A stretch of 64,000 bases of DNA from a virus. Shown here piece after piece: positions 1-51,193 of this stretch. A model generated the notes under the pieces. It had not been told where the DNA came from. It worked only from the letters and a program-made list of their open reading frames with translations, and did not search any database. A program made the position numbers and the translations under genes. Position 1 is the stretch's first letter. The number at the start of each line of letters is the position of its first letter. The DNA is taken from the IMG/VR virus record IMGVR_UViG_3300045988_141143. One strand, 5' to 3'.

Positions 1-70
1 ACTAAGCATATACTATATACTTTTAATTTTTTATATACTTTTGCAATACAAAATACTAATATTATACGTT

Positions 71-796: not shown

Positions 797-1204
797 CTAA
801 AGTATAACGGCCGCCGCCAACTCACGGGCAAAACGGTGCAAAGCGTTTATAATTTTCTCTTTCTGTGCCTGTCGCGGTTTCTTGCGTCCGTGCATATAGG
901 CCCATAGTTGTTTTTGATTTATCCCCGTGATACGCTCCATACCTGCAAGAGATATAAAACTACCGTAATAATACAAAAAGCTTTCGGTATCATACCGCCA
1001 TATAATTGTATATTCGCCAGCCTTCAGAGGTTCGGGCCAGTCCTCGCGCGGCATGTTCTTTTTTATTAACTCGATAGCTCGCACGGTGTCGGCCTTGCAT
1101 GCTTCCACGGTGTCACCAGCCGCCCAAATTCCGGGGCAATTCTCAGAGCATGCGCCGAAACTGTCGGCACTTGCAGAAATAAGCATTATAATTTCGTTTG
1201 CCAT
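797..1204 (-). CDS. hicB: HicB-family antitoxin
   Basis: N-terminal HicB-like segment ('YTIIWRYDTESFLYYYG') and C-terminal DNA-binding tail ('QKQLWAYMHGRKKP...'). Lies immediately downstream of a hicA-like gene. Confidence 0.5.
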   Translation of the reverse strand: MANEIIMLISASADSFGACSENCPGIWAAGDTVEACKADTVRAIELIKKNMPREDWPEPLKAGEYTIIWRYDTESFLYYYGSFISLAGMERITGINQKQLWAYMHGRKKPRQAQKEKIINALHRFARELAAAVIL

Positions 1205-1233
1205 ATCCTTATATATATTATTTCGTTTGTTAT

Positions 1234-1267
1234 GAAAGAGGAAAGGGGCGCGCCCCTTTCCTCTTTC
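1234..1267. promoter_or_regulatory. 34-nt perfect palindrome between hicA and hicB
   Basis: gaaagaggaaaggggcgcgcccctttcctctttc is its own reverse complement. It lies between the hicA stop (1273) and the hicB start (1204). Confidence 0.6.
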
Positions 1268-1272
1268 TTCTG

Positions 1273-1451
1273 CTAAATTCCAATCGCTCGCGCTATGCTC
1301 CGCCGTAACGGCTCGGGCACCTCCTTTGCCCCATGAAAGGGGACAGGGGCGAGAGCTTTCCGCCCTTGGTGTAAAAGTAGTGCGAGCCTTCGGCGTGGTC
1401 GAACTTCCAGCCCTTGGCCTTGATTCTTCGGTGAAATTCTGTGTACTTCAT
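1273..1451 (-). pseudogene. hicA: HicA-family toxin interrupted by a 1-nt frameshift
   Basis: N-terminus 'MKYTEFHRRIKAKGWKFDHAEGSHYFYTKG' matches HicA. The conserved C-terminus 'GRKALAPVPFHGAKEVPEPLRRSIARAIGI*' is in the +1 frame, starting at AAGGGCGGAAAG (~1355). Frame 0 gives a non-homologous tail that stops at 1293. Confidence 0.6.
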
Positions 1452-1569
1452 TGCTTTATATGTTTTATTTGTTTGACGTTGCAAAGGTAGTAAAATTTCT
1501 ACCTTTTACCAAATATTTTTGCAATTATTTTTGCTTTCGTCATTATTTTTTTCTTTTCACCTTATTATA

Positions 1570-2193: not shown

Positions 2194-2487
2194 ATGAGAA
2201 CGAAAATAGACATTCGTCGCGCCATAAAAGAGCGCGGTTACACCATTACGTCTTTCTGTCAGAAGTTCGACCTAAAGACGCAGAACATCATTCAGAATTA
2301 CATCAAAGGCAACCCTACAATAAAACGTTTGGAAGACCTTTGCGAGAAACTGGATTGCGACATCACTGATTTGTTCTATCCAATAGGCGATTCGAGCGAT
2401 GCACAGTCTACTATCAACACCACCGCTTTATGTCCTCATTGTGGTGCAAAGGTTCGGGTCGGTGTGGTGCTCCTGCCCGAAGAATAA
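2194..2487 (+). CDS. XRE-family HTH regulator with C-terminal zinc-ribbon (paralog 3)
   Basis: HTH-like 'YTITSFCQKFDLKTQNIIQNYIKG'; C-terminal 'CPHCGAKV' as in ORF 71..361. Confidence 0.55.
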   Translation: MRTKIDIRRAIKERGYTITSFCQKFDLKTQNIIQNYIKGNPTIKRLEDLCEKLDCDITDLFYPIGDSSDAQSTINTTALCPHCGAKVRVGVVLLPEE

Positions 2488-2557: not shown

Positions 2558-3001
2558 TTAAGACTCCAGCTCGCCGCCAGGTTTCTGACCGCCGCCTTCA
2601 GTGGTGGAGCCGCCGGGCTTCACGCCACCCGTGAGGTCGTTGCCGGCAAGGATGACCTTGAGGTCATCGGTGACGAGGGAGCGCATGTAGCTGTAGGGGT
2701 TGCCGATTTTGTGCTGCGCCTTGTAGGCCTTCATCACGGCGAGGTAAGCCTCCGTGCCCTTGGCCGACGTAGCCGACGGGCGGTTCTGCTTCCACCAAGA
2801 GGAGGCGAACTGCGATTTCTTCGTAAACGAAGATTTCACCGTCTGCTGTTTCTCACTGTTCGGCTGCACGCATCCGTGATAGCCAGCCGAATACATCTTA
2901 CCCGTGCGTTTGTTGACACCAATATAAGTAGTGTCCTTTTTGCACAGTTTGCCACTAATGGAACTAACCAAGTGGCTTGGAACAATCTTTGCCATACGCA
3001 A
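2558..3001 (-). CDS. Hypothetical protein with a Gly-rich C-terminal tail shared with the HU-like protein at 24288..24839
   Basis: C-terminus 'GGSTTEGGGQKPGGELES' versus 'GGGEQKPGGNPPEIES' of ORF 24288..24839. The overlapping plus-strand ORF 2399..3004 has antisense-like composition. Confidence 0.4.
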   Translation of the reverse strand: MRMAKIVPSHLVSSISGKLCKKDTTYIGVNKRTGKMYSAGYHGCVQPNSEKQQTVKSSFTKKSQFASSWWKQNRPSATSAKGTEAYLAVMKAYKAQHKIGNPYSYMRSLVTDDLKVILAGNDLTGGVKPGGSTTEGGGQKPGGELES

Positions 3002-3173
3002 TAAATTTTTCCGTGAAACATTGTCCCTAAAAAGGGGCGTTAATACACTCAGAGCAAGTCTACTGAAAGTCTACTGAAAGTTCACTGACGTTGCTCATAG
3101 TGTAAAGGTACGAAAAACGTGCGTGAAACATCGGACATAAAAAATAATTACTAACTAAAATAACAGATTTATT

Positions 3174-4880: not shown

Positions 4881-5399
4881 TTATACACTCATCTCAAGCA
4901 TCTTCGGGTAGCCTGCCTTGTAGTCGTAGGCTTCCACCTCCTCGATGGTCGTCAGCTGACTGACTGCTTGCTTATGGCTCGCCGTAACGTTAAAACACTC
5001 GTAAGCATAGTTTTCGATGCTTCGCATGAGTACTTCGGCTTGCGCACATGGCATAGTAAAAGATACACCTTTTAGCCATATAGCGATATTTTCCTCGCCA
5101 AGCGCAAACTTGTCAGCAATATTCTGTCGTAAGTCCATGCGCTTTTCGACGTTAGGAGAATTAGTGTCATCCTTGTTCCATGAAATAAGCATACCGTTTA
5201 AAATAAAGCCGTTTACCTTGTCTGAGGTGTCGTAGGCTGTTATCTCTTCCTCCTTCTTTGAGATGGCATAAGCCAATTCTGCCGCCTTTACTCTTTCATC
5301 GAATTTAGCGTAAGCAGCCTTCACCTCGTCCTCATCGAATAGCGATGTCGGGATGCTACATTCATAACACCGATAAGCTCCTATCTCGCTATCCAACAC
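4881..5399 (-). CDS. Tail-fibre assembly/chaperone-like protein (paralog A)
   Basis: C-terminal ~60 aa ('ENYAYECFNVTASHKQAVSQLTTIEEVEAYDYKAGYPKML') is homologous to the C-terminus of ORF 5974..6519. Lies downstream of the tail-fibre gene. Confidence 0.4.
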   Translation of the reverse strand: MLDSEIGAYRCYECSIPTSLFDEDEVKAAYAKFDERVKAAELAYAISKKEEEITAYDTSDKVNGFILNGMLISWNKDDTNSPNVEKRMDLRQNIADKFALGEENIAIWLKGVSFTMPCAQAEVLMRSIENYAYECFNVTASHKQAVSQLTTIEEVEAYDYKAGYPKMLEMSV

Positions 5400-5559: not shown

Positions 5560-5961
5560 TCAAAGAGGCAAATAGGTCAGCAAGCGTAGACAGGCAGAAA
5601 ACGAGTAGGCGACGGGCTTTCTGTTGGTGCCAATCTGATACGCGCAGTAAACAACAAACGTGGCACTACCCTGCGTTGAAGTCCATCTAATGGTTTTCTT
5701 AACGAAAGTTTCATAGGCTGTGGCAGTGCTTGCATCAAACAATTCCGTCAGAATTTCCTTGATAGTCTCAAGGTTAGCTACATGTACTAATTCCTGTCCT
5801 ATCGACATAATGAAACCACGCTGTTCTTCACCACCTAACGTAAGAATTGTGTTATATGCGTAGTCAAAGGCTGGCAAGGGGAAAGCCTGCGCTTGTCCCT
5901 CCACCATCTTCATCACTGGTATTCGCAGCGTGAAGTCGTTACCTTTAACGATTTTCTTCAT
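5560..5961 (-). CDS. Hypothetical protein
   Basis: Intact ORF between the two chaperone-like paralogs. Coding-like composition. Confidence 0.4.
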   Translation of the reverse strand: MKKIVKGNDFTLRIPVMKMVEGQAQAFPLPAFDYAYNTILTLGGEEQRGFIMSIGQELVHVANLETIKEILTELFDASTATAYETFVKKTIRWTSTQGSATFVVYCAYQIGTNRKPVAYSFSACLRLLTYLPL

Positions 5962-6525: not shown

Positions 6526-9168
6526 TTAGTAATTATTGTTGCTCATTATTCCTACGTCAAGATTACCGAAAGTGGTTTCTGTCTGTATCGAATAGATTCT
6601 TCCATACCCTGCGAGTGTCATGTACTTAGCGCCGAAGGTGGCTATCTGTACATAGAAGGATGGCCTTGTCACGCTCTGCCCCTTCTTGATGGCAGGCACC
6701 AGCTTTGTGTTGTCGTAGGCCGTGGCATCCCCAGTAAGGAACACGCCATCCGCAAGATTTGTCAGCGCACCATTCTTCACCATTGTGCGGCTCGTAAAAG
6801 TCCTTCCGTCGGCTGCACTCGCAAGGTCGTAAGTACCCAATCCGTTTGCCGAGTCGGCTACTATCTTTCCGTTCACTCTTGGCGCTGAGTAACGATACAG
6901 GGTTGTCGTTTTGCCCGTCGCACCCTTAACGAAAAGAATGTAGTTGTTATCCTTCGTTGCCGTGTACCACGACTTGGTGGTATCAACCCACGGTAGGTCT
7001 ACATTCTCTCCGAGCGGAGTCGTCAGTCCTGCGTCCTCTGCTTTGATATATTGCGCAGAAGTTATCTTCGCGTCGGTCTTGCTTAGCGAGGCGATACCAG
7101 CAGGGCCGAGGTCATAGAGAAAGTTTCCGTTGTCGTCGTAGTACGACAGCACGGCCTGTCCCGAACTGTTCAGACCGAAGCGGATGTTTGCAGTTCCTGC
7201 CTTGCCGTAGATATTGATAAGGCCATCGGCTATCCTTACCATCTGTCCGTTGTGTCCTTGGGATGTAAGCATCTGCGCCAGTATCAGAGCCGCATTGATG
7301 GCTCCGTCTTTAAAGAGAGCGGCTGTCGTTGTCTGACCGGTAGAGAGCGTGTTCTCCACCTTGATTTTCTCGCCATACAGAGTTACTCCTCTCGACGTAA
7401 TCTCAAGTCCTGCCGCCTTTGCTGTGGCTCTGTCGATGAGGTCGGTCTTCCGTTCTGTATAATCAGTAAGTTGTGCGCCTTCCTCCAGTTTCGGCTTTGT
7501 CACCCAAGCCTCAGTATCGCCTGGAACACGTATCAGCACCTTGTCTGGGATTACCTCTGCTCCCTCGCCAGTATAGTCCTCTATTCGCCAATGCACCCAG
7601 TACCGCTTATAGGTCGAGGTGAGTGCGAGCTGTGCGTATCCGTCAGCCCAGCCGTCCGTATATTCGTTTCCTTCGCAGGTTTCTGTATATACATTTGCAT
7701 GAACGCTGTCTCCATAGAGAAAGACGTTGATGTTTCCGCTGCCCTTGGCAACGAAGGAGAACACATAGTCCTGATTCTTTACTATTCTCGCCTGCCCAGA
7801 AAGGGTAGCTGTTGTTGGAAATTTATATTGCAAGACTTCTGTGTACTGAGACTCTGCCGAGTTGTTTTTGTTGTACAATATACCGTAGCAGCCTTCGTAT
7901 TTTCCAAACATAATCAGTCCACTGGCAAGCTGGAGATTGCTTTTGTCAGACGATCTGGTCAGTGTCATCGTGTCCTCCATAAGGTTTCCTCCCACATAGT
8001 CGTAGTCCGTTTCCGCAGGAGTCCAGCCTGTGTACTCGCTTCCTTCTTCAAGCATTGGCATACATATCCATCCGTTGCCCGAGGCAGTATAACCAAAGGT
8101 TCCGTCCACGGTTATGCCATTGTAGACAAAGATATTCACCTCGATAAACTCTGCGTTGCTCGTATTGAAGGTGTAGTTCACCTGCCTCCACTGATTCACC
8201 TCGTTCTCCTTTGTCAGCCCGTACATGTTACCCGAGGTGGCAGTAATTCTGTCCCCTCTATCGCCATTCAGCGCAGCCATTTTGAACACCTCCGATATAA
8301 CCTGTAAGTCCTTCGTGTCGCACTTTATCCATGCCGAGAAAGTGTAGTCTGTATTCTTCTTCACAGCGATGCCGTTGACGGCCTGTCCCCAGAAAAGACC
8401 CTTGTACTGAGGCGTTCCGTTACCCGTCACCGAGAAGCGGATGGCATTATGGCCGTTTACGCCCTGTGTTATCGTAGGCTGGAAGATGCCGTTCATATAA
8501 TATATATCACCCTTCCTCGTCAGTGACGTATCTCGCAGTAGGTTATGCCGTCCTTGCTGGCTCTGAGTCACACTGAGAGTAATCTCCTTTGCTGTCTGCT
8601 TGATAGTAGATGTGTAGGCTTTGAGAACGGTAGGATTGCTTCCTTTGAGGTCGTTCTCCAATGCCTTAAATTGCGACTGATACTGCTTTGCCGTAGCCTT
8701 TACACTACCCATATACTTCGACACGTTCACCGAGAATGGAACTTGCGCAAAATAGAGAACACCAGTGTAAACAAATTGTGCGACCGCATAGCCTGATGTT
8801 GCAGAAACCTGTCCTTGATTTACCCCGTCAACAATTACATCGTTCTTTGCAATATTACTGCCTGATACAGATACTTCGATATATCCATCCTTCTGTGTTG
8901 CACTACATTTGCAATTTACACACAAATCATCCCTTGAGTTAATATTGCTGCATTCATTAGAGATATTCAGGTTACCCTTCATTATCTTTACCTTCGCAAC
9001 CTTTGATATGCTAACAGGTACAATTCCACTATCATCTGTGTCAAAAACGAGCGGAGCGTCTTCGACAATAATAGAAACGGCATCCTTGCCAGGCTTGCCT
9101 TGCGGGCCTGGCGCACCATCCTTTATCGCCGCTATCGTTATCTGGCCCCTCGCCAATAATACTGCCAT
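6526..9168 (-). CDS. Tail fibre / receptor-binding protein (880 aa)
   Basis: N-terminus 'MAVLLARGQITIAAIKDGAPGPQGKPGKDA' carries a collagen-like GxxGxxG segment and an anchor motif shared with ORF 9214..10257. Long Ser/Thr/Asn/Gly-rich beta-rich body. Confidence 0.6.
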   Translation of the reverse strand: MAVLLARGQITIAAIKDGAPGPQGKPGKDAVSIIVEDAPLVFDTDDSGIVPVSISKVAKVKIMKGNLNISNECSNINSRDDLCVNCKCSATQKDGYIEVSVSGSNIAKNDVIVDGVNQGQVSATSGYAVAQFVYTGVLYFAQVPFSVNVSKYMGSVKATAKQYQSQFKALENDLKGSNPTVLKAYTSTIKQTAKEITLSVTQSQQGRHNLLRDTSLTRKGDIYYMNGIFQPTITQGVNGHNAIRFSVTGNGTPQYKGLFWGQAVNGIAVKKNTDYTFSAWIKCDTKDLQVISEVFKMAALNGDRGDRITATSGNMYGLTKENEVNQWRQVNYTFNTSNAEFIEVNIFVYNGITVDGTFGYTASGNGWICMPMLEEGSEYTGWTPAETDYDYVGGNLMEDTMTLTRSSDKSNLQLASGLIMFGKYEGCYGILYNKNNSAESQYTEVLQYKFPTTATLSGQARIVKNQDYVFSFVAKGSGNINVFLYGDSVHANVYTETCEGNEYTDGWADGYAQLALTSTYKRYWVHWRIEDYTGEGAEVIPDKVLIRVPGDTEAWVTKPKLEEGAQLTDYTERKTDLIDRATAKAAGLEITSRGVTLYGEKIKVENTLSTGQTTTAALFKDGAINAALILAQMLTSQGHNGQMVRIADGLINIYGKAGTANIRFGLNSSGQAVLSYYDDNGNFLYDLGPAGIASLSKTDAKITSAQYIKAEDAGLTTPLGENVDLPWVDTTKSWYTATKDNNYILFVKGATGKTTTLYRYSAPRVNGKIVADSANGLGTYDLASAADGRTFTSRTMVKNGALTNLADGVFLTGDATAYDNTKLVPAIKKGQSVTRPSFYVQIATFGAKYMTLAGYGRIYSIQTETTFGNLDVGIMSNNNY

Positions 9169-13879: not shown

Positions 13880-14128
13880 CTAAGACATTTTCTTCTCTAC
13901 GATAGCTGTCACATCAGACACAAGCTGTAAGTCTTTTGCCTCTTCTGGCGAAATCTTGATATGGAACATGGTTTCGGTCTGAAGAACGAGGTCGAGAAAG
14001 TCAATAGACTCAAGAGCAAGATCATCACGCAGGTTAGCGCTGTCGGTCACTTCTGCTGTCGATGCCCAAGGTGTGCGCAGGCCTTCAACGATATTGAACA
14101 CCCGCTGACGTATATCTTCTTTGTTCAT
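13880..14128 (-). CDS. Acyl carrier protein
   Basis: 82 aa, acidic. 'DDLALESIDFLDLV' matches the phosphopantetheine-attachment region (DSL to ESI). Start overlaps the KAS stop (ATGA). Confidence 0.6.
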   Translation of the reverse strand: MNKEDIRQRVFNIVEGLRTPWASTAEVTDSANLRDDLALESIDFLDLVLQTETMFHIKISPEEAKDLQLVSDVTAIVEKKMS

Positions 14129-15339
14129 GATGGTTGATATTTAGAGATGATGAATGATGAGTTGGTGCCTCCGAAGCCAAAGGCATTGCAGAGGATATGG
14201 TGTGCTGAGTACTCGCGTGACTGCATGACGAGATTGAGTTTGGGAAAAGCATTCTCGGCTGTGGTAGCCGCACCGAAGACAGTGTCTGTGTTGAGCATCA
14301 TGGATGCTTGAACGGCCTGCGATACACCAGCCATCCAGCACTCGTGCCCCGTCATGCCCTTGGTGGCTACGATATAAGGGCTCTCGGGGAATACCTTTCC
14401 GATGGCTTCTGCCTCTGCAGCATCGCCCAGCTCTGTACCTGTGGCATGGGCAAGGAGTACATCTATCATTCCTGCATCGAGTCCTGCCGATTCTATGGCC
14501 TTAATCATTGCCACTTCTTCCTGATAAGCATCCGGGGTACAGATGTTGGTGCCGTTGGTGGAGAAGCCGCAGCCGGAAAGTTCTGCCACGGGCGAGACTT
14601 CATAATCCTCGAAACGCAAGCTGTCGGAAGGCTCAAGAATGACACAGGCTGCACCACCCGAAGGAGCAAGACCATTGCGGCCTTTGCCGAAGGGCTGCAC
14701 CTTGTCGGGCGAGAAAACGCCCATGGCATCAAACGACAGCATGGAGAAGGGACCTGTCTCCTGTGCGCCAACGACAATCACCATGTCGGTTTGGCGCGTA
14801 TCAAGAAGCATCTTGGCAAGACCGATGGCATGACCTCCTCCGGCACAAGCCCCGCTGACGGTAAGCGAAAGTCCTTTCAGTCCGTAGATAGAGGCGAGAC
14901 TCATGCTGACGGTGGAATTGAGTGTACGGAACACTGCGCCTGCCCCTAAACGTCGGGTGTCGCGCTGTGTAATGGCAGTTGTCATTGCCTGATAGTTGTC
15001 TCCAGCCGTAGTGTCGTTGCTGACGATGACCGATACATTGTGAGACTGCAAGAACTCGGGAAGAATATTGGCTTCCATCAGAGCCTCGTTGACGGCAGAT
15101 AAGGAATATAGGGTCGGTTCGGAAAGACATTGCCGTTGAGCCCTGGTGAGTTCGGATAGCTTCCAAGGGTTCGGGTCATTTATCTTTCCGCACAGGTCGG
15201 ACTGATAACCTTTCTCGCTACGTGCGGGGTCGTGGTGAAGACCGCACTCTCCATACGCCAGCTTCTGTGCGACGGAAAAGGTATCGTTGCCAAGACAGGA
15301 AACGATACCTGTGCCTGTGATTAATATTTTTCTATCCAT
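14125..15339 (-). CDS. Beta-ketoacyl-ACP synthase (KAS I/II, FabF/FabB-like)
   Basis: Active-site Cys in 'VSGACAGGGHAIG'. His motifs 'LAHATGTELGD' and 'KGMTGHECWMAG'. C-terminal 'FGFGGTNSSFII'. Confidence 0.75.
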   Translation of the reverse strand: MDRKILITGTGIVSCLGNDTFSVAQKLAYGECGLHHDPARSEKGYQSDLCGKINDPNPWKLSELTRAQRQCLSEPTLYSLSAVNEALMEANILPEFLQSHNVSVIVSNDTTAGDNYQAMTTAITQRDTRRLGAGAVFRTLNSTVSMSLASIYGLKGLSLTVSGACAGGGHAIGLAKMLLDTRQTDMVIVVGAQETGPFSMLSFDAMGVFSPDKVQPFGKGRNGLAPSGGAACVILEPSDSLRFEDYEVSPVAELSGCGFSTNGTNICTPDAYQEEVAMIKAIESAGLDAGMIDVLLAHATGTELGDAAEAEAIGKVFPESPYIVATKGMTGHECWMAGVSQAVQASMMLNTDTVFGAATTAENAFPKLNLVMQSREYSAHHILCNAFGFGGTNSSFIISKYQPS

Positions 15340-23007: not shown

Positions 23008-23085
23008 TTGCTTTTTTCGACTACAAATGTACTAAGAATTGTCTTAGTGGTACGGACATGAGTCAGAACTGCGAGAGCTGCACGG
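23008..23085. repeat. Copy A of a ~75-nt duplicated element (Bacteroides -7 box + relic of an MTase 3' end)
   Basis: 'ttgcttttttcgactacaaatgta' is identical at 23008-23031 and 24969-24992. Downstream ~45 nt are about 80% identical. Minus-strand reading gives TACATTTG (TAnnTTTG). Confidence 0.55.
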
Positions 23086-24287: not shown

Positions 24288-24839
24288 TTACGACTCAATC
24301 TCGGGAGGGTTGCCACCAGGTTTCTGCTCGCCGCCTCCAGTGGTGCCGGAATCGCCCGTGCCGGGAGTTGCTGGAGCATCCGTTGCAGCATCGCCCACTC
24401 GCTTGAACGAGCCGTGCTGTGCGAAGGCGGCGGTGAACTTCTTGGAGAAGTCGATGGCTACGCCTGCGGTGAGGTCCTTTGTGGTGAGGTCGGCGGCGGT
24501 AATCTCTCGGTTCACGTCAACGTCCTCGCCTGCTGCCTTACGTGCTTCGAGCTTCGCCTTGAGCTGGCTCTGAGTGAGCGAACCGCTGACGGTAGGACGT
24601 ACCGTCATGCCCTCGGCAGACACCTGTACCTTGGTGCCCAGTGCCAACAGAAGCGGCAGCTTTTTCTCCAACTGCGTCATCACGGCCATTACGTCCGCTG
24701 CGCCTACTGTAGAGTCCTGCGCCATGTAGTCGCAAAATTCAGGGAATGACATCTGCTGCAAGTCAACGATCTGTGCGCTTGCAACCTTTTCTTTCGTGAA
24801 ATTATTCACACGAACTGCAATTCTTGTTTTGATTGCCAT
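24288..24839 (-). CDS. HU-family (Bacteroidales HU-like) DNA-binding protein
   Basis: 'MAIKTRIAVRVNNFT...VDLQQMSFPEFCDYMAQDSTVGAADVMAVMTQLEKKL' plus Gly-rich tail 'GGGEQKPGG'. Confidence 0.55.
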   Translation of the reverse strand: MAIKTRIAVRVNNFTKEKVASAQIVDLQQMSFPEFCDYMAQDSTVGAADVMAVMTQLEKKLPLLLALGTKVQVSAEGMTVRPTVSGSLTQSQLKAKLEARKAAGEDVDVNREITAADLTTKDLTAGVAIDFSKKFTAAFAQHGSFKRVGDAATDAPATPGTGDSGTTGGGEQKPGGNPPEIES

Positions 24840-24910: not shown

Positions 24911-24967
24911 AATGTGCCGACACTTTTTATCGAATGTGCCGACACTTTTTGTCAAATGTGCCGACAC
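24911..24967. promoter_or_regulatory. Three direct repeats of AATGTGCCGACAC at exact 22-nt spacing (operator-like)
   Basis: Copies at 24911, 24933 and 24955. The core GTGCCGACAC is an imperfect palindrome. Lies between the -7 box (24985-24992) and the HU start (24839). Confidence 0.55.
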
Positions 24968-25045
24968 ATTGCTTTTTTCGACTACAAATGTAGGGAGAAA
25001 ATTTTGAGCGGTGCGGACATAAATTCAGAACAGCGTGAGCTGTGC
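24968..25045. repeat. Copy B of the ~75-nt duplicated element (overlaps the MTase 3' end)
   Basis: See copy A. This copy contains the real stop region of MTase 25025..25795. Confidence 0.55.
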
Positions 25046-25795
25046 TTGCTCCAACTTGATGCGCTTGCAAGCCTTGTCGTAATACTCCTTGTTGAGCTCA
25101 AAGCCGATGAAGTTGCGCTTCTCTTTTATACAAGCAATGGCGGTGGTGCCGCTGCCCATGCAGTTGTCTAATATGGTGTCGCCCTCGTTGGAGTAAGTAC
25201 GGATGAGGTACTGGATGAGAGCGACAGGCTTTTGAGTGGGGTGGAAGCTGTTGTGAATATCCCTCTGAAATAAGACAATATCGGTTGGATATTTTTCGTC
25301 GGTTATCATATCCTTCACTTTGCCATAATTTCCGTAACATCTGTTGGTTTGCTCTTTCTCTTGCTTTCCTCTGCTGTGATTGCGTTCATGTGGAAGACAT
25401 TTGCGCATTTGTGGATGATAGGTTGGCTGTCCGTCGTAGAAAACGGAAATCATCTCCGTTTGCTTTAGAGGCATCTTCTTTGTGTTCAAAAAGCCAGTTG
25501 TACGGCATTTATCCCACGTGATATTATAGCGCCACATCTTTTCATTGCTCATCATCAGTTTTGCCGTGAACATACCCTGTCCGAACAATATTATAGCCGC
25601 ATTGGGCTTACTGATACGAAGATATTGCTTCCATAAAGAATCAAGTGGAATAATACTATCCCATCCTCCTCCTTCGCTCTGCTTATTGAGGACACCATAC
25701 GGCAAATCGCACACAATGCAATCCACGCTTCCGTCTGGAATCCTTTTCATTCCTTCGAGGCAGTCTTCATTATATATTTTGTTCAGTTCTATCAT
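25025..25795 (-). CDS. DNA methyltransferase, beta-class N6-adenine/N4-cytosine type
   Basis: Motif IV 'CDLPYG' is N-terminal to the AdoMet motif 'DNCMGSGTTAIAC'. 'HPTQKPVAL' block present. Confidence 0.7.
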   Translation of the reverse strand: MIELNKIYNEDCLEGMKRIPDGSVDCIVCDLPYGVLNKQSEGGGWDSIIPLDSLWKQYLRISKPNAAIILFGQGMFTAKLMMSNEKMWRYNITWDKCRTTGFLNTKKMPLKQTEMISVFYDGQPTYHPQMRKCLPHERNHSRGKQEKEQTNRCYGNYGKVKDMITDEKYPTDIVLFQRDIHNSFHPTQKPVALIQYLIRTYSNEGDTILDNCMGSGTTAIACIKEKRNFIGFELNKEYYDKACKRIKLEQAQLTLF

Positions 25796-25802
25796 TGTCT
25801 TT

Positions 25803-26837
25803 TTACTTTTTCCTTATCTTTTCCATTTCCTCATTCTCCACCGTCAGGCGTTCCAGGTGCTCCAGCACGAGGGAATAGCTTTGGTTGTTCACCTGGTCCT
25901 CCGTCAGTCCGGCATACTTCTGCATGGTGGCGGTGGTGGCAGTGTAAATCTCCAAGGGCGTGGTGGGCTTCTGCGACTTGAGGGGCTGCACCTTGAACAC
26001 ATGACGATAACGATGAGCGAGGGTGTGCATCACGCCCGTCCACCAAAAGAGTATCACCTGCCATGCCGTTTCGGGAAAATCGCGGAAATAGGACTGGTTC
26101 GTCTCCCACTGGTTCAACTCGTAGTGGAAGTCGTGCTTCACCATGCCCGTGTTACTGTCCACATAGTCGGTCGTGCCGTTGAAGATGGTGGCGAGAAACA
26201 TCGTCCGGGCAGAACTCACGTTCTCCATCTGCCGCTGCATCTGCTCGTCGGTGAAAGTGCCGCGCTGCTGCATCTTCAAGAGGCTGTTGCTAAGTCGGGT
26301 GTAGGTCTGCATCATGTCGGAGGCGAAGCGATACTGCGCCCACGAGAATCCGTCGAGGTCGTTGGCAGGACCGCTGAACACCTTCTTGCGTCGCCACCAC
26401 GCGCGGCGTCGCCGGATGACAGGGTAGGGAAAACGGGTGAGGAAAGCACCGTTCTCGTTATCAAGCCAGTCGAGCAAGCCTGCTCCCTGAGCGATATACT
26501 CTGCCGACTTTCGGGCGTCGGTCTTTGCCTTGGGCGTCAGCCAATAGTTGATTTGCCACAGATACAGCGGAAAGGTGCCGCTGTCCTCGTCGTCCTGCAT
26601 ACGGCAGAGGTAATACTGCTCGCTGAGGTCGAGGCGAGTGTCGGGCGCTGCCACTATCTCCAAGCCCGACAGGGCAAAGAAGATCGCCACCTTCACATTG
26701 CGCATGTCGAAGGGGTGGTATCTGTCCTGCCGTTCCACCTGCTCACGTATCACGTCGGCTATCAGCTCCAACTGTTTCGTAGAGCAGAGGTTCCAGTGGC
26801 GGGGAAGATGTAAGTCTATTTTTTTTGGATTGTTCAT
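25803..26837 (-). CDS. Hypothetical phage protein (344 aa)
   Basis: Intact ORF. Arg/Trp-rich segment 'RRRRAWWRRKK'. Confidence 0.4.
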   Translation of the reverse strand: MNNPKKIDLHLPRHWNLCSTKQLELIADVIREQVERQDRYHPFDMRNVKVAIFFALSGLEIVAAPDTRLDLSEQYYLCRMQDDEDSGTFPLYLWQINYWLTPKAKTDARKSAEYIAQGAGLLDWLDNENGAFLTRFPYPVIRRRRAWWRRKKVFSGPANDLDGFSWAQYRFASDMMQTYTRLSNSLLKMQQRGTFTDEQMQRQMENVSSARTMFLATIFNGTTDYVDSNTGMVKHDFHYELNQWETNQSYFRDFPETAWQVILFWWTGVMHTLAHRYRHVFKVQPLKSQKPTTPLEIYTATTATMQKYAGLTEDQVNNQSYSLVLEHLERLTVENEEMEKIRKK

Positions 26838-26993
26838 TTTTACAGAATCCTAAGTTTTTATCCCAAAAATGCCAAAATTGGATTATTTTAGTCCAGAAAA
26901 ATCCAAAAATGGACGAATTTAATCCCAAAAATCCAAAAGCTGGACCAGATTTATCCAGAAAAATCCAAAAATGGATGGGAAAGTTATCAAAAA

Positions 26994-30530: not shown

Positions 30531-31439
30531 TTATCGCATGGCTTCCTCAAGAGTTCTAATATAAGGTATGGCTTCGTTGCGCACAATGTCGAGAAAAAGT
30601 TGTGCTGACCGCTTCATCGGCACGTCCTTCATCCAGTGGGCATTGCTCATCAGGTCGTGCTCAAGCCCAGCGATGGGACGGACGGTAAGGGTGGGGTGAC
30701 TCTTCAGATAAAGTTTAGGCATGAAAGTAACACAATGGGTTTCTTCCACGATGGCAAGGTCTTCGTTGGGGTCGCTCACAATACATTTTACATTCAGTTT
30801 CATCAAGTCGTATCTCAGATATTGCTGGAAGGTATTGAACACCCTTTCGCCTACATCGGGCATAATCACGTTGTGCCTTAACAAATCCTCGTATGACACC
30901 TTTTCCAGTCGGGCCAAAGGATGGGTGTCCCGCATCATCGCATAGATACGGAAAGGAATACAGGGTTCTGACTTGATACCCTCATTCTTGTAGGCAGAGT
31001 TCAGAGTGAAGGCGAGGTCAATGGAGTGGCTTCTCAACAGGTGGTTCAAGTTCGCTGCCTTGGCAAACTCGGCGTTGATTCTCACATTCGGGTATCGCTC
31101 CATGAAGATAAGTGCAGCCATCCGAATGTAAGGTGCGATAAAAGAGCCTACACCTATCCTCAGCTCGCCCACAAGGCAGTTGTTGAGCGCATTGATTTGC
31201 TCCTTGCAGTCATCCGTCTGCTTCAGTATCTCCTTGGCGCGAGGCAAAAGCGCCTCGCCGCTCTCGGTGAGCATGATGCTGTGCGAGGTGCGGATAAGCA
31301 GCTTGCACCTCAGTTCATCCTCAAGAGCCTTGATGTGCTGACTGATGGCGGACTGAGTGACACAACAGCGCGTGGCTGCAATGCTGAAAGATAAAGTTTC
31401 AGCGACATATACAAATGAGCGCAAATGACGAAGTTCCAT
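30531..31439 (-). CDS. LysR-family transcriptional regulator
   Basis: N-terminal wHTH 'MELRHLRSFVYVAETLSFSIAATRCCVTQSAISQHIKALEDEL' followed by a substrate-binding-like domain. AT-rich flanks. Confidence 0.75.
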   Translation of the reverse strand: MELRHLRSFVYVAETLSFSIAATRCCVTQSAISQHIKALEDELRCKLLIRTSHSIMLTESGEALLPRAKEILKQTDDCKEQINALNNCLVGELRIGVGSFIAPYIRMAALIFMERYPNVRINAEFAKAANLNHLLRSHSIDLAFTLNSAYKNEGIKSEPCIPFRIYAMMRDTHPLARLEKVSYEDLLRHNVIMPDVGERVFNTFQQYLRYDLMKLNVKCIVSDPNEDLAIVEETHCVTFMPKLYLKSHPTLTVRPIAGLEHDLMSNAHWMKDVPMKRSAQLFLDIVRNEAIPYIRTLEEAMR

Positions 31440-32490: not shown

Positions 32491-33777
32491 TTACTCACTT
32501 GCCTTGAAGAAGGCAGTAAGACCCATACTCATACCAGTAGCGGTGATGGTGATGGACTTCTCCTTGCTGCCGTTGCTCCAATGTGAGAACTTATCCTTTG
32601 TACCGTCCTTTGCCTCAAGAGTCAGGATCTGGTTAGGAGTGGTTTCTACGGCCTTGTCGTATTTAGTACCGTTGACGGTTACTGAAGCGTCGGTAATCTC
32701 CTTGCCTTCAGTTTCTGCGATAGTCACTACAAGGTTAGAGTTGGTATAGTCGCCAGATACGAAGTCAGTGCAGCGCAGCTCACCATCCGTAACAGCCAAA
32801 GCCCATGAGAATGGATTTTCGATACCGTAGCCCTGAATACTCTGACACTGGAACTGCAGGTCACGTGTATCGTTGTCAGAGCCGAGGCGTACATCGACGA
32901 AAGTCTGATTACCCTCTGAATCAACAGCGAACACGAGGTTGCCGGCAACAGAGAAGATGATGCGGTCGCCTTCACCCATACCGTCTACAGGAGCGATAGT
33001 TACCTTTGGCAACTCAGGAATCTTGTAGTTACCGTCTGCTACTACGTCGAGCTTGTGAGTACCGTATGACTGGAGAGCATAAGCATCAGAGATATTGATA
33101 GCAGTCTCTGTAGTCATGTAAGCGAAAATCTGCTGACGACGAAGACGTGGATCAAGCTTCATGTAAGCTTCACGGAAGTTCTTGTAAGCAGAACTATCTG
33201 TGGAAGACGTAGGAGCTGAGATGGCTTCACAATGAATGAGGTTATGGTTAGCCTCACTGATCAAGCCGTCCTCGATGTCATGGTTGATACAGGTAATCCA
33301 GCCATCAGCCAAGCCCATAGCCTTCTCCTCTTCGGTAGCGCCCTCGTGATCGTTGTCGATGTCACCCCACCAGGCGTTATTGTAGATGTCATCTGCATGG
33401 GTTTTGATTACGGCCTCTACAGCAACAGTAGAAAGAGGATAAGCACCCTGCGCGTCTGTACCATGGATTGTCTCGCAATATCTGTCGATATTATCAGAAC
33501 CATGGAACCAAGCGAGCTTGGCAGTAAGTACGCGCTCTTTCAGGAAGCCCACCTCGCTGTTCATCTTAGGATTGACATCCTTTCGGCGAGTGGTGCCACC
33601 TTTACGCAAGAAGATGTTAGTTGTACGCTGATACTGGATGCCACTGATAACTTTTACTCCAAGACGCTGCATATCTTCAGGAGCTGCATACTGTGGTCCC
33701 ATCACGACGCTTTTAAAAACTTGGTTAGCTACCTGCTGAAGGACATCAATACCAATAAAGTTTTTAGGTGTATTCAT
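32491..33777 (-). CDS. Major capsid protein candidate (428 aa)
   Basis: Immediately downstream of the S49 protease/scaffold gene. Size and composition fit HK97-like MCPs. No diagnostic motif visible by eye. Confidence 0.45.
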   Translation of the reverse strand: MNTPKNFIGIDVLQQVANQVFKSVVMGPQYAAPEDMQRLGVKVISGIQYQRTTNIFLRKGGTTRRKDVNPKMNSEVGFLKERVLTAKLAWFHGSDNIDRYCETIHGTDAQGAYPLSTVAVEAVIKTHADDIYNNAWWGDIDNDHEGATEEEKAMGLADGWITCINHDIEDGLISEANHNLIHCEAISAPTSSTDSSAYKNFREAYMKLDPRLRRQQIFAYMTTETAINISDAYALQSYGTHKLDVVADGNYKIPELPKVTIAPVDGMGEGDRIIFSVAGNLVFAVDSEGNQTFVDVRLGSDNDTRDLQFQCQSIQGYGIENPFSWALAVTDGELRCTDFVSGDYTNSNLVVTIAETEGKEITDASVTVNGTKYDKAVETTPNQILTLEAKDGTKDKFSHWSNGSKEKSITITATGMSMGLTAFFKASE

Positions 33778-38571: not shown

Positions 38572-39468
38572 TTATATGTCAAACTCATCACAATACTGGC
38601 GCATACGCTCGATGATGATGTTGCGTATCTTCTCACCAATAATCTTGGCATTGGGATGCGGTGTGCCCGTCTTGCCATGATAGCGAAGGTCGAGAATATG
38701 GCTCCAGTCGGAAAGCGTATAGGTATATGCCACAACGGTATAGGTATCGAGAGGCAGAACACCTCGTGCGTCCTGCGGCTTCAAGCCGGACTTCAGAAGT
38801 CGGTTGTAGCCCCACTCGCATACTCGGCATACAAGGCCATAGACCATGCGCTGCCAACGACTGCCTTCTACGTGCCAATGCGGACGTGCTATCTGTACGC
38901 CTCCCTTCTTCTCTAAATAGCAATAGCGTGTGCTCTGTTCGGCGATGCTGTTGGGCGACGTGCGGTTGAGCTCACGCGAGGTACTTATCTGCGTGGTTAC
39001 TACCAGCGTCATGCGGATAATAGAGAATGCCTCCTCGCACTCGTACTTCAGTGCCTTCTCGATAAACTCGTCTTCGCTGACACCATACTGACTAAGCGTA
39101 TTCATTATGTCCTCGTGCTCAAGCGCAAACTGAGTATTGGTACTGAACCATACCTTATGATTCTTGGTGGCATAGTTGATGTAAGGCGATGCCTCCAGAT
39201 ATGCCCAGATGTGGTTAGGAAGACCCCTTTCGTTGGGCATAAAGAAATAGACTGTGCCGTGGCGAAACATCGAGCGATGTCCGCTTTCCCAGAAGCCTTT
39301 GCAGCGTTCCTCGTCACGCTTCTGGATGAAAGTTTTCTCTTCCTCTTCGGTCATTCCTTCTTCGGGCTGCTTGCCCTTTGCCTTGTAGCATATTCTGCCC
39401 ACTCTTGCTATATGTTGTGCAAGAGTAGTCTGCTGCCACCATTCTACTTGTGGTTCGATGAATTTCAT
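38572..39468 (-). CDS. thyX: FAD-dependent thymidylate synthase ThyX-like
   Basis: 'TSRELNRTSPNSIAEQSTRY' resembles the ThyX RHR...S.RY signature. C-terminal 'ARGVLPLDTYT...LDLRYH' block. Confidence 0.5.
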   Translation of the reverse strand: MKFIEPQVEWWQQTTLAQHIARVGRICYKAKGKQPEEGMTEEEEKTFIQKRDEERCKGFWESGHRSMFRHGTVYFFMPNERGLPNHIWAYLEASPYINYATKNHKVWFSTNTQFALEHEDIMNTLSQYGVSEDEFIEKALKYECEEAFSIIRMTLVVTTQISTSRELNRTSPNSIAEQSTRYCYLEKKGGVQIARPHWHVEGSRWQRMVYGLVCRVCEWGYNRLLKSGLKPQDARGVLPLDTYTVVAYTYTLSDWSHILDLRYHGKTGTPHPNAKIIGEKIRNIIIERMRQYCDEFDI

Positions 39469-39509: not shown

Positions 39510-40016
39510 TCATATTTTCCGAAGTTTACTCAATACTCGTCGCTGCACCTTGTCACACAGACTTTCGAGCGAGCCGTTATTGAAGATTACTGCATCGTAG
39601 AAGAACAAGGACAGAAGATTGCGCTGTTGGTCGCGGTCTAAGCGTTCCTGCGACACCCCTCGGCGCAGTCGAGTTGCTTCCCATGCCGTCACACAAATCT
39701 TGAATAGCTCGATGTCGGGGAATTTCTCGCACAAGGCTTTCAGTCCGTCCTCGTCAATGACGTAAATAGCCTTGTCCGTCACCTGGTCGATGGTGGTCCA
39801 ATACTCATAGCCGCCATACTGGGTGTATGCCAACATCTTGTCGTGCGGTACGTCGCACTTCTCTACAAAATAATGCTGCCAACCGTCAATTTCGCCTTCA
39901 CGCTTCGGACGAGTGGTATAAGAACATATCACTTTATAGCCGCCCATGTCGGACAGCATCTGAGCCACAGTGTCCTTTCCTGCACCACTCGGACCAGTAA
40001 TTGTTATCAGTTTCAT
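39510..40016 (-). CDS. Guanylate-kinase-like dNMP kinase
   Basis: P-loop 'ITGPSGAGKDT'. 'TTRPKREGEIDGWQHYFV' matches the Gmk 'TTRPPRPGEVDGVDYHFV' block. Confidence 0.6.
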   Translation of the reverse strand: MKLITITGPSGAGKDTVAQMLSDMGGYKVICSYTTRPKREGEIDGWQHYFVEKCDVPHDKMLAYTQYGGYEYWTTIDQVTDKAIYVIDEDGLKALCEKFPDIELFKICVTAWEATRLRRGVSQERLDRDQQRNLLSLFFYDAVIFNNGSLESLCDKVQRRVLSKLRKI

Positions 40017-40194: not shown

Positions 40195-41280
40195 TTAGCC
40201 ATAGATTTCCTGCATATCCTCCCTCGAAAGTGTTACCTTGGCTCTTTTGCAAAACATGAAAAAAGTATTTGCTCTTACTCTTTCGTATTTTCCGAATGAC
40301 TTCCAAGGAGCCACAAAGTCTGATTCACGGTGTCCGTGGTTGGCATCAAAGGGACGGAAACGAGAAACTCGCTTCCACATATCATAGCCTTCATTCGGAT
40401 CGATACTGTATAAAGACATTCCGCATTTAACCCAGTCATCATAGTTTTCCATAATGTCAACAGCATTCTGCTCTACCTTACGTACAAGGACACGCGCTTT
40501 GCGCAAGATGATGTCGGGTGTATCATTTTCCCAATCACCAGTATAACCCGACCTCTGACCTGACGACGTATTTTCGTAATGCGTAGCAACTTTAGTTACA
40601 GGAATTAGCGATGGCAACACAGCCATATCTTCCAGTCCCTTATACGGCACCACATTTTCATTGATATATATATGTTCGGGATCGTCCCAGGAGGCGAAGC
40701 GCACACGACCGATGTTGCTGCAAGCCTTGTCGAGCATGATGCCGATAGCGGCATATTCTTTGAGCAGAGCTTTGAACTGGTCTTTGTGTCTTTCGGGATA
40801 GGCCAGACGAACCAGACCGAAATAACCAGTACCAGAGCAAGACCGCATCATTAATCCTATCTCAGGACGAAAACGGGCAAGCTTAAATATACTTTCAAAA
40901 TCAGTTATCTGAAGATTGTCCTGCAGATCAATGTCGATGGCGAGCCAGCCCGTGTGCTGTTTCAGGTGGCTCTCTCGTCGGCTCACCATGACACGCTGCC
41001 CTGGATGCGTCAGACTGTCATCTTCATAGAGAGCGAACAAGCCGCTAAGAGTGGCACCAGGTAACATCTTCTTGGTATTGATGTACTCAGGCATTTTCTT
41101 TGCCTTGCTGCCAAATTCCTGACGCATAGCACGAAGACGCTGCACATACGGCTTCCATCTATCCGTAAGACAGAACTCGCGGATGGTCATCTGCTGAATG
41201 CACTCACCCGTCTCGCGGTCTACGAAACGGCCATAAGCATCTTGGGCAGACTCATAAATAGAGCAAACTTCGTCAAACAT
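40195..41280 (-). CDS. Prim-Pol (AEP-superfamily) primase-like replication protein with PriCT-like C-terminus
   Basis: AEP motif I 'LAIDIDL', motif II-like 'SCSGTGYFGLV', 'RVRFAS'. C-terminal 'YDDWVKCGMSLYS'. Confidence 0.5.
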   Translation of the reverse strand: MFDEVCSIYESAQDAYGRFVDRETGECIQQMTIREFCLTDRWKPYVQRLRAMRQEFGSKAKKMPEYINTKKMLPGATLSGLFALYEDDSLTHPGQRVMVSRRESHLKQHTGWLAIDIDLQDNLQITDFESIFKLARFRPEIGLMMRSCSGTGYFGLVRLAYPERHKDQFKALLKEYAAIGIMLDKACSNIGRVRFASWDDPEHIYINENVVPYKGLEDMAVLPSLIPVTKVATHYENTSSGQRSGYTGDWENDTPDIILRKARVLVRKVEQNAVDIMENYDDWVKCGMSLYSIDPNEGYDMWKRVSRFRPFDANHGHRESDFVAPWKSFGKYERVRANTFFMFCKRAKVTLSREDMQEIYG

Positions 41281-42199
41281 ATCTTAGTTATTATACTTAA
41301 TACTTTCACTGCAAAATTAAGAAATAAAACCTAAATAACAAAATATCTGGGGTATTTTCTTGTGTATTTAAGATATATTAAAAGAAATTTAATCGAAATA
41401 TCCCAGTTGTTTCACGTAATGATAGGTATTTTTGAGTGATGAGAAGGAGCATAAAATAAAATGAGACCAAAAAGAAGACTCTGGTCTCATTTCTGTATCA
41501 AAAAGTCCCATTTTTCAAAAATGAACCAAAAAGCAAAAGTCCACTCATCCTATTTTTCTCCTTTTTAGTCCCATGATTGTCTCACGATTATCACCCTGTT
41601 GCCCACTTATTTCTTGCTGTTACTTGCTTACTAATTAGCTTTTTATATTATTTTGGTCTCAAAATGATTATTTTTTTTATAAACTAATATGCGCATAAGA
41701 AATAAAATATTTATCTAAAAGATATAAAATACAGCAAAATTGGCTCAAATCCATCTTATACTTTGCTCCATTTCAATCTTGTAAGTAACTTATTGTCTGA
41801 TGTTTACGGCAAAGCCGTTAATGCTACTAACTTCTAAATTGAGGTTAGGGGCTTTTGATTTTAGGAGAATAAAAAAATTACCCAAAATTCTGATATAGTA
41901 TGCTTAGGATTCATGAAAAATGCGACCAAAACCCTGAAATGAGACCAAAAATGCGAATAAAGTCCCAATAAATGAGACTGTTACACCACTACTCTACCCT
42001 GTCACATTCATATTTGCGAAATGCGACCAGATTATTCGGATTCCATATTGACTATCGTTTTATAGCCGTTCACACCTCACAGCGAAAGAGAAAAACACTG
42101 CGTTTCACAACGAAAAAAGACCACCACGTTTCACAACGGAGCGGTCTCATCAGAAAATACTAACTAATAAATAAGATAAAGAAAATAAAATTCGTAAAC
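41281..42199. repeat. 0.9-kb AT-rich non-coding region with iteron-like repeats (candidate replication origin)
   Basis: At least 8 copies of AATG(A/C)GACCA(A)AA in both orientations (41458, 41482 inverted, 41518, 41651 reverse, 41915, 41937, 41969, 42017). 'AAGTCCCA' occurs 3 times. Inverted repeat AAATGAGACCA-N13-TGGTCTCATTT at 41458-41492. Confidence 0.45.
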
Positions 42200-49898: not shown

Positions 49899-50096
49899 TG
49901 TTGTGTTTGATTTTTAATGTGTGAAGTAAATGTGAAGTGTTATCCTGTTTTGATTAAGATACGATGCAAAGGTAACGAAAGGCGAAAAAACGGGTGGGAC
50001 ATATTATTTCGCCATGGGGACGGGCAGCGAGGCTTGTCCCAATCGTTTTGGGACGATTTCGTAACTTTGCCGACGTAACAAACAACATAAACAAAG

Positions 50097-50900: not shown

Positions 50901-50978
50901 AAACGAAACAGAAGTATCTGTTTGATGCAAACATAAGTATCTGTTTGATATAAACAATGGGCATCGTTTGAAAAACAA

Positions 50979-51080
50979 CTTGCCGACACTTTTCATCGAA
51001 TGTGCCGACACATTAAAACGAAGGTGTTAGCACTTTTTGCCAAAAGTGTTAGCACATTTTACCAAAAGTGTTAGCACATC
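50979..51080. promoter_or_regulatory. Five operator-like sites at strict 22-nt spacing (two GCCGACAC-type, three GTGTTAGCAC-type)
   Basis: 'gccgacac' at 50982 and 51004; 'gtgttagcac' at 51024, 51046 and 51068. Same motif family and orientation as the 24911-24967 array. Confidence 0.55.
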
Positions 51081-51193
51081 AAAAAAACGGAGGTTCAGTT
51101 GATTTCATCAAAAGAGTCGGCTGATTTCGCCAAAAGAGTCGAACCTCGGCAAATATATAGTGCATAAATGCGCTATAAAAACACTATAAAAAT

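Follow-up and report, generated by a model that had tools for sequence, protein, structure and literature searches.

What is the function of a short row of palindromic sites placed between the promoter and the start codon of a phage gene for an HU-like protein, and why do sites of the same kind recur at a distant locus of the same genome? The window analyzed here is the whole 64-kb stretch of DNA from the IMG/VR virus record IMGVR_UViG_3300045988_141143, which covers part of a phage genome of about 98-105 kb, with about 28-38 kb lying beyond the window. Two rows were found, one in the leader of HU1, a gene of the HU-HIG family (locus 1), and one directly after p267, a conserved gene for a protein of 267 amino acids (aa) (locus 2). 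They belong to a family-wide modular system of phased dyad arrays, in which the site type is swapped like a cassette among relatives and is matched between the two distant loci.

Phased dyad sites at two loci

At locus 1, the plus strand of positions 24911-24970 reads AATGTGCCGACACTTT, AATGTGCCGACACTTT, and AATGTGCCGACACATT, with starts exactly 22 bp apart; on the sense (minus) strand of the gene, the sites read AAAAGTGTCGGCACATT. Tandem Repeats Finder reported a period of 22 with 2.6 copies, 94% matches, and a score of 100. At locus 2, TTGCCGACAC at 50980 and GTGCCGACAC at 51002 are followed by GTGTTAGCAC at 51024, 51046, and 51068, all 22 bp apart.

Each unit is composed of two inverted 7-nt half-sites (e.g., AAAWGTG) around a 4-bp centre, and a spacer of 4-5 bp separates the units. 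Every unit includes an arm starting with A's, a centre, and an inverted arm ending with T's, and the dyad extends to 16-18 bp (AAAWGTG-N4-CACWTTT). Since the arms are inverted, the junctions between units are dyads too, so that half-sites recur in alternating orientation every 11 bp on one face of the helix. The sites named B (GTGYCGRCAC) and C (GTGYTARCAC) differ solely in their central CG or TA.

The sequence GCCGACAC occurred nine times in the window, where 1.45 occurrences were expected, and none of 100 shuffles reached nine. The longer pattern AAWGTG-N4-CACWTT, with at most one mismatch, had seven matches against 0.94 expected (0 of 100 shuffles reached seven); all seven fall in the two loci, and the sites occur nowhere else in the 64 kb. 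Hence, the dyad symmetry and helical phasing that a preliminary description had proposed from the imperfect-palindrome cores and the 22-nt step were confirmed far above chance, and the motif scan that it had called for, carried out within the window, placed the motif in these two loci alone.

The HU1 leader

The elements of locus 1 are as follows.

24288-24839, minus strand: HU1, gene of the HU-HIG family (PF18291, 34.7 bits against a cut-off of 26.2)
24911-24970, minus strand: B-type array of three 16-18-bp dyad sites in the leader of the HU1 operon, centres 22 bp apart
24992-24985, minus strand: Bacteroidetes-type -7 box TACATTTG of the HU1 promoter, 14 nt downstream of which the array begins
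25014-25020, minus strand: ATGTCCG box, conserved in relatives; the -7 box follows after about 21 nt

Read along the minus strand, the ATGTCCG box is followed by the -7 box, 14 nt, the three sites, a 71-nt leader, and the ATG of HU1. The box thus lies upstream of the array, and the three copies of AATGTGCCGACAC(T/A)TT first noticed in this leader do stand between a -7 box and the start codon of an HU-like gene. HU1, which also matches TIGR01201 below the cut-off, is the first gene downstream of the array; on the other side, locus 1 is flanked by a DNA methyltransferase gene (25025-25795, minus strand).

The promoter of the portal gene (23059/23031, minus strand) is the same down to TACATTTGTAGTCGAAAAAAGCAA, with a -7 box plus TAGTCGAAAAAAGCAA; its leader follows directly, with no array. 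Because the portal gene has the same promoter without an array, the array can be regarded as an add-on control module.

The two promoters are members of a class in which ATGTCCG (or ATGTCCC) is followed after about 21 nt by TAnnTTTG, and which precedes HU1, the portal gene, an HU2-like gene, and a holin-side operon. Copies of ATGTCCG were found on the minus strand at 25014-25020, 23053-23059, and 3132-3138, and ATGTCCC at about 49990-50005, upstream of a -7 box at 49974. The upstream box replaces the usual Bacteroidetes -33 TTTG and could be recognized by a phage activator or sigma factor.

An eleven-unit hub inside an operon

The preliminary description had listed a second array of five sites at 50979-51080. 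The five units at 22-bp spacing are present (50976-51081), although the first B unit reads TTG..., and six flanking units of the same grammar (two A, one E, a decayed G, and two D) had been missed. The features of locus 2 are as follows.

50097-50900, plus strand: p267, conserved 267-aa gene, with its own promoter TAACTTTG at 50062
50906-50946, plus strand: two A-type units (AAACAGA-AGTA-TCTGTTT), 23-bp step
50952-50969, plus strand: one E-type unit (AAACAATGGGCATCGTTT), found in relatives as three to four copies in the HU3 leader
50976-51015, plus strand: two B-type units, identical at 30 of 32 positions, spacer included, to 24914-24945 on the same genome strand
51020-51081, plus strand: three C-type units (AAAGTGTTAGCACATT)
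51088-51105, plus strand: a decayed G-type unit (GGTTCAGTTG, compared with GGTTCGAACC) in the phased slot between C and D
51110-51149, plus strand: two D-type units (AAAAGAGTCGGCTGATTT, AAAAGAGTCGAACC), the same type as in the HU1 leader of the related contig L012
51194-51832, plus strand: PAPS-reductase-like gene, the first gene past locus 2, 45 nt downstream

In total, locus 2 comprises 11 phased units, which fall into five or six sequence types and occupy slots in the order A, A, E, B, B, C, C, C, decayed G, D, D. Unit centres span 50914.5 to 51140.5 in steps of 23, 23, 24, 22, 22, 22, 22, 24, 22, and 22 bp, and the 22-bp register is unbroken across the change from the B to the C core. At the position of the decayed G unit, the relative L024 contains an intact three-copy G array.

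The stop codon of p267 lies 5 nt before the first unit. The p267 protein had no match in Pfam, PHROG, NCBIfam, or the PDB, all of its homologues are at least 73% identical, and its AlphaFold model, with a predicted local distance difference test (pLDDT) score of 52, was unusable. Past locus 2, a same-strand block extends from the PAPS reductase gene through methyltransferase genes to the large terminase gene (53633-55627). Several site types are gathered at locus 2 inside an operon, which makes it a hub and not a simple operator in the 5' untranslated region of an HU gene. A possible minus-strand -7 box (TATATTTG at 51157) directed into locus 2 was not conserved in L024 and L002 when compared by eye.

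The PAPS-reductase-like gene (51194-52044) is apparently split into overlapping frames of 212 aa and 98 aa. A single gene of 281-283 aa was found in L204 and L205, and the scaffold L203 has the same split as the window.

Array positions are kept and cores are swapped among relatives

The phage belongs to an uncultured, Prevotella-associated gut group with genomes of about 98-105 kb. IMG/VR includes about 150 contigs of the group (50-110 kb), with a relative of p267 in about 146 and of the portal gene in about 139. The group also occurs in gut assemblies of the ENA, among them a 102,463-bp scaffold with a locus 2 identical to that of the window, and in Prevotella-labelled genome bins, where it is present as free phage-sized contigs with no integration seen. 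Nothing similar to the window was found in the annotated phage collection, where megablast also gave no match; a group abundant in human-gut metagenomes is thus without a cultured or annotated relative. A literature search for arrays of this kind in phages of Bacteroides or Prevotella found no relevant paper.

Across about 100 related contigs, the position and phasing of the arrays were kept, while the core varied among at least 12 types, which bears out the 22-bp spacing in the comparative check that had been suggested. Arrays occupy the leaders of HU-like genes and the stretches that follow p267 and the portal gene. In the HU1 leaders, the promoter, the 22-bp step, and the downstream leader were kept and the core was exchanged, as follows.

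B, three copies: L007, L008
C, two to three copies: L010, L016, L017, L140, L255
B variant: L009
G (GGTTCGAACC), three copies: L011, L013
D, three copies: L012
H (GGGGATAGCCCC), one to three copies: L014, L015

The types seen in HU1 leaders were thus B, C, G, D, and H; HU3 leaders had E, and A, Y, F, J, K, and L came from other positions. The HU3 cassette occurs in two close relatives (portal 97-98% identical) and is composed of another HU-like gene, its own promoter, and three to four E units. At locus 2, the closest relatives kept the order A-E-B-C-D with copy numbers from one to four. Other clades combined A, B, C, and G; another arrangement included A', three copies of GGTTTCGCCCGAAA, three of B, and three of F (GGGCTAGCCC); and a further clade had the J type (GATTGCGTTCGCCGTCC). 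Many relatives had no arrays at locus 2. After the portal gene, other relatives contained three copies of K (TTTCGCGCGAAA), three of L (AAGTGATGCGCATCACTT), four of E, or further types.

The site types thus behave as exchangeable cassettes that recombine among relatives. The earlier proposal that the B and C flavours represent distinct specificities holds insofar as the two are separate and exchangeable, C alone filling the leaders of L010, L016, L017, and L140, whereas XRE paralogs as their readers were unsupported.

Several apparent associations were discarded. The type of the adjacent methyltransferase showed no link to array type, as N6/N4 enzymes went with B, C, and E, and C5 enzymes with the B variant, G, D, and H. 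Single B-core matches in L098, L183, L186, and L193 were chance matches in coding DNA, and L003 and L004, returned by a pattern scan for B arrays, were unrelated GC-rich DNA. The portal-gene loci also showed 21-bp 'arrays' near 5.0-5.8 kb, which were coding 7-aa repeats inside the portal gene. This variable 21-bp coding repeat was found in the portal genes of L016, L017, and L153-L182 (at about 5000-5090 or 5730-5820), with two to four copies of a unit such as QSDNQLS; the portal gene of the window has no such repeat.

Leader types recur at locus 2

The leader type was found again at locus 2 of the same genome in 3 of 3 readable cases. With spacers included, leader and locus 2 were identical at 36 of 44 positions for B in the window, 31 of 40 for E in contig 151591, and 36 of 40 for J in contig 092584. 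The copy number at locus 2 also followed the leader: genomes with a B leader had two B and one E, and the genome with an E leader had two E and one B. From this small sample of sequences, the pattern argues that the two loci may work together.

One account of such repeats would be functionless tandem duplications, spread by slippage and ectopic recombination in non-coding DNA. Copy numbers do change fast, from one to four among near-identical relatives, and spacers have been copied along with cores. However, the same grammar of dyad, A/T flanks, and 22-bp step is found in at least 12 unrelated cores, the arrays occupy the same genomic slots even in phages that share only about 75% protein identity, the order A-E-B-C-D is retained, and leader types are matched to locus 2 types, all of which make this account highly improbable.

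The matching could also reflect an exchangeable 'address code', in which each leader would carry one type and the hub would stack all the types in use in one register, thereby coupling distant loci through bridging factors or an antisense hub transcript. We consider such a code rather unlikely. To our knowledge, no described phage system stacks five to six operator specificities in one phased row matched to remote leaders. If the code were real, cassette swaps would rewire regulation or set incompatibility groups among co-circulating gut phages.

Sites on DNA or stems in RNA

A row of palindromes could also work as RNA. Hairpins in leaders and between cistrons would then affect stability, processing, or translation, or locus 2 would be antisense to the matching leader. 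All arrays seen lie downstream of a -7 box or inside operons, where transcription was deduced from -7 boxes and the arrangement of genes. Folding of the HU1 leader gave -40.4 kcal/mol (z = -5.3) and paired unit 1 with unit 3; this energy is nevertheless uninformative, because any row of palindromes folds well. For the antisense version, the locus 2 copy has a direct genome orientation in 3 of 3 genomes, and since direct copies lie in operons on opposite strands, the leader and locus 2 transcripts would be complementary over 32-40 nt (30/32, 31/40, and 36/40).

The variation among the sites is at odds with conserved stems. At the same position, the asymmetric centre, which would be the loop, is flipped between close relatives (GTGCCGACAC in the window and GTGTCGGCAC in L018, which is 99% identical). 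Hybrid C/F sites (GTGTTAGCCC) are repeated two to four times in three genomes, and such hybrid half-sites persist, as do the TTG...CAC and GTG...AAC variants. Arm changes were usually uncompensated, and arm mismatches showed no G:U bias toward the sense strand (25 sense, 31 antisense, and 141 other). The 11/22-bp phasing is kept across unrelated cores and type boundaries, for which an RNA element offers no reason, and an Rfam search of the whole window at gathering thresholds gave 0 matches. The flipped centres, hybrid half-sites, uncompensated arm changes, and phasing across cores therefore favor protein sites on double-stranded DNA over RNA stems, and a role at the RNA level is unlikely. If no binder exists, the antisense version would represent a new phage way of coupling two operons; a lack of association between arrays and any gene or allele would favor RNA or structural explanations.

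A proposed cooperative operator or roadblock, and its candidate binders

The reading that we favor, with a probability of about 0.5, is that the arrays are cooperative operators or roadblocks for cognate dimeric DNA-binding proteins, placed in transcribed DNA. For each site type, a cognate sequence-specific phage protein would bind cooperatively as dimers, and a row of two to four sites would be coated over about 45-90 bp, so that promoter escape or elongation would be blocked in a stoperator-like manner. Operons with the same site type would thereby be tied together, and at the hub, several types in one phased row would allow several regulators to gate the packaging operon.

A number of observations weigh against this proposal. 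Spacers are shared between the loci along with the cores, so that recent copying, and not selection for one shared factor, could account for the match. None of the sites overlaps the -33/-7 elements and all lie in transcribed DNA, as an RNA role would equally predict, and 11 phased units of five to six types would be unusual for independent regulators. No binder was found among the XRE paralogs, HU1, or the protein families of the window; searches of the window for other DNA-binding families gave nothing beyond the three XREs, a HicB antitoxin, and a LysR-type regulator (30531-31439). Contig 156455 has no XRE1, yet its HU1 leader contains the same three B-type sites. XRE2 has the recognition helix RQATISAV in the window and SRPSVSAT in 156455, while both have a B leader. 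XRE3 is 96-97% identical in genomes with B and E leaders and is ambiguous. The early suggestion that one of the XRE paralogs (71-2487) binds the sites is thus contradicted by co-variation for XRE1 and XRE2. The remaining paralog is listed below.

2194-2487, plus strand: XRE3, the sole XRE paralog that co-variation does not contradict as a B-site binder; a weak candidate

No array adjoins any XRE gene, and the XRE genes lie 22-50 kb from the arrays. The promoters of XRE1 and XRE3 share a different motif, AATACTAATAT. The XRE cluster is highly variable, with extra paralogs in relatives, and the gene in the XRE3 slot showed no correlation with the repeat type of the HU2 leader. Similarly, a predicted tracking of XRE2 alleles with C or C/F-hybrid sites failed on contig 141376: the RQAT allele goes with three C sites at locus 2 of the window and with four C/F and one C in 141376, and the SRPS allele goes with two C/F and one C in 151591.

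The XRE2 gene (367-711; homologues in L208-L234) has a nearly invariant C-terminal two-thirds and a hypervariable helix-turn-helix, whose recognition helix exists as at least seven alleles (RQATISAV, SRPSVSAT, TQQNISAT, TQSNISAT, SQASVSAS, QRATVSAT, and TQATVSAT), a pattern that looks like specificity switching. Within its coding sequence (623-653), the inverted 8-mers GTGTCGGC and GCCGACAC lie 15 bp apart; they agree with the B core at 8 of 10 bases, are without A/T flanks, and may be due to chance. A HicA/HicB-like toxin-antitoxin pair lies between the XRE genes (797-1484, minus strand), where relatives have a different HicAB-like pair.

The pattern scan also returned two unrelated contigs, L251 and L252, in which a 57-aa gene with weak similarity to ribbon-helix-helix (RHH) proteins (RHH_5, E = 0.001, below the cut-off) is immediately preceded by three GGTGTTAGCACC sites spaced 22 bp apart. 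These contigs of 9.8 and 4.7 kb have the C-type core and spacing in an unrelated element; the array of L251 lies at 2430-2530, and L251 also includes Rep-like and Zot-like genes. They provide an independent precedent for such a row serving as the operator of a small RHH-type repressor. The window contains no homologue of the 57-aa protein.

If binders of the kind favored here are found, the arrays would supply Bacteroidota, for which few regulatory parts exist, with a natural library of orthogonal operator-protein pairs, and would show specificity evolution by half-site steps. The promoter class with and without an array, the at least 12 swapped types, the hybrid half-sites, and the matched loci together provide a testable handle.

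HU-family proteins and their leaders

HU-family proteins might themselves bind their own leader arrays, in a structure-specific or autoregulatory manner, and bend DNA at locus 2 near the packaging genes. They would recognize the repeats as curved palindromes flanked by A/T-tracts and would in this way restrict their own production. Leader repeats were found before every HU-like gene, namely 22-bp arrays before HU1, E arrays before HU3, and hypervariable 11-bp direct repeats before HU2-like genes in 20 of 20 relatives inspected. Promoter, array, and the 5' end of HU1 were exchanged together, with HU1 residues 5-19 varying with array type, and A- and T-tracts recur about every 11 bp.

As a specificity determinant, however, HU1 was rejected. 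Genomes with B-type leaders and genomes with C-type leaders encode HU1 proteins that are 97% identical, the central region of HU1 does not differ among B, C, G, and D, and the G-type and D-type leaders go with nearly the same HU1 N-terminus. The arrays persist where HU1 is deleted: L016, L017, and L140 retain C arrays despite a truncated or deleted HU1. Arrays also precede genes other than HU, for example after the portal gene and in L169, and HU-HIG proteins have been argued to be unlikely sequence-specific factors (PMC5499826). Binding by HU proteins is therefore quite unlikely as the explanation of the arrays.

The HU2-like gene (2558-3001, minus strand) has the glycine-rich C-terminal tail of HU1 and no Pfam match. 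Its leader contains three 11-bp direct repeats at 3056-3088 (CAGTAGACTTT), and the leaders in 20 relatives (L207-L226, about 6840-6950) contain three to eight repeats of differing sequence (CGTAGTACTTT, CGTAAGACTCT, CCGTAAGACCA, CGTGAAATAT, and others). The sequence ATGTTTCACG recurs in the HU2-like promoter and near the start codon. A half parS site found in HU2 leaders, GTTTCACG, was not enriched in the window, with four occurrences against 2.1 expected.

Comparison with known repeat systems

The arrays were compared with lambdoid operators, stoperators, RHH-bound arrays, and iterons, the features of the lambdoid, RHH-bound, and iteron systems being taken from established knowledge. The tripartite lambdoid operators (OR1-3 and OL1-3 of lambda, 434, and P22) resemble them in their 14-18-bp dyads in rows of three, with short A/T-rich spacers and about two helical turns from centre to centre; the same specificity occurs at two distant loci and differs among mosaic relatives. 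In contrast, the arrays here lie downstream of the -7 box or inside operons and not over the promoter, no repressor gene adjoins them, the known XREs do not co-vary (XRE3 being ambiguous), one locus stacks five to six specificities, and there is no sign of phage integration.

The ribbon-helix-helix systems (the operators of Arc/Mnt and CopG, the ParR-bound parC of R1 and pSK41, and the omega heptads) share sub-sites of about 10-11 bp on one face and units of 20-22 bp with internal dyads. Their proteins coat 40-100 bp cooperatively, often between promoter and gene. Unlike these systems, the window was found to contain no RHH gene or partition NTPase, and its rows include several types.

The stoperators of Cluster A mycobacteriophages are likewise transcribed intergenic sites whose sequence diverges among related phages. 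They are repressor sites that stop elongation, and each is a single, asymmetric, orientation-dependent site of 13 bp, present at 20-30 places and bound by a monomer (PMC9283540, PMC6550527). In contrast, the sites described here are dyads in phased rows, insensitive to orientation, and are confined to two loci within the 64 kb; the relative orientation of B is opposite to that of C. Because defining features of each fail, the arrays are not members of the lambdoid operators, the stoperators, or the RHH-bound arrays.

Iterons (P1 incC/incA, R6K, and the lambda origin) are alike in having tandem repeats of about 22 bp with copies at two loci, in giving autoregulation through repeats between promoter and gene, and in specificity that co-varies among relatives. 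They differ in being usually asymmetric and in lying beside or inside an initiator gene; the arrays here do neither, their neighbors being HU, methyltransferase, 267-aa, and PAPS reductase genes, with no initiator gene.

The likeness to iterons bears on a further possibility, that locus 2 is a DNA maintenance site, such as replication iterons, a partition centromere, or a pac region, with the copy in the HU leader serving autoregulation or pairing. Iterons and ParR/ParG-type centromeres typically feature such tandem 22-bp repeats on one face. Locus 2 is followed by a 45-bp AT-rich stretch and lies in the strand block of the large terminase, 2.4 kb upstream of that gene, and an extrachromosomal lifestyle is possible because the group occurs as free phage-sized contigs without integration. 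However, no Rep, ParA, ParM, or TubZ gene lies near either locus, and the partition NTPase families ParA, ParM, and TubZ were missing among the 54 plus 30 window proteins. The GC skew has no switch at either locus and follows gene strand only. Many relatives have no locus 2 array or have arrays elsewhere, for example after the portal gene, five to six types per row are unfit for a single initiator, centromere protein, or small terminase, and a separate AT-rich region of 900 bp with repeats belongs to the primase-like gene (40195-41280). Taken together, a maintenance function is very unlikely.

The primase-like gene contains a BT4734-like N-terminal domain plus PriCT_2. The 900-bp AT-rich non-coding region upstream of it (41281-42199, 39% G+C) includes recurring GAGACCAAAAA and GCGACCAAAA boxes, together with AAATGAGACCA...TGGTCTCATTT as an inverted repeat. 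The region could plausibly be a replication origin and is a better candidate than the arrays.

Other features of the window

A search for tRNA genes in the window found none, and the sampled part beyond it (64-74 kb) contained small genes without family matches and no arrays. At the left end (window 1-70), two independent assemblies, L201 and L202, stop like the window itself, at 67-79 nt upstream of XRE1. The shared end suggests a genome end or a repeat boundary. Contigs 156455 and 151591, which are without XRE1, run on into other genes there.

A third kind of phased leader repeat was found at 26856-26975, in the leader of a 344-aa gene (25803-26837, minus strand), where four units of about 31 bp each contain a TCCAWYTTTGGA palindrome. 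The window also includes several host-like genes: an acyl-carrier-protein-like gene (13880-14128), the LysR-type regulator (30531-31439), a ThyX-like gene (38572-39468), and a guanylate kinase gene (39510-40016). A beta-ketoacyl synthase match was found in the scanned set, for which the size-compatible open reading frames are those of 404 aa at 14125-15339 and 428 aa at 32491-33777.

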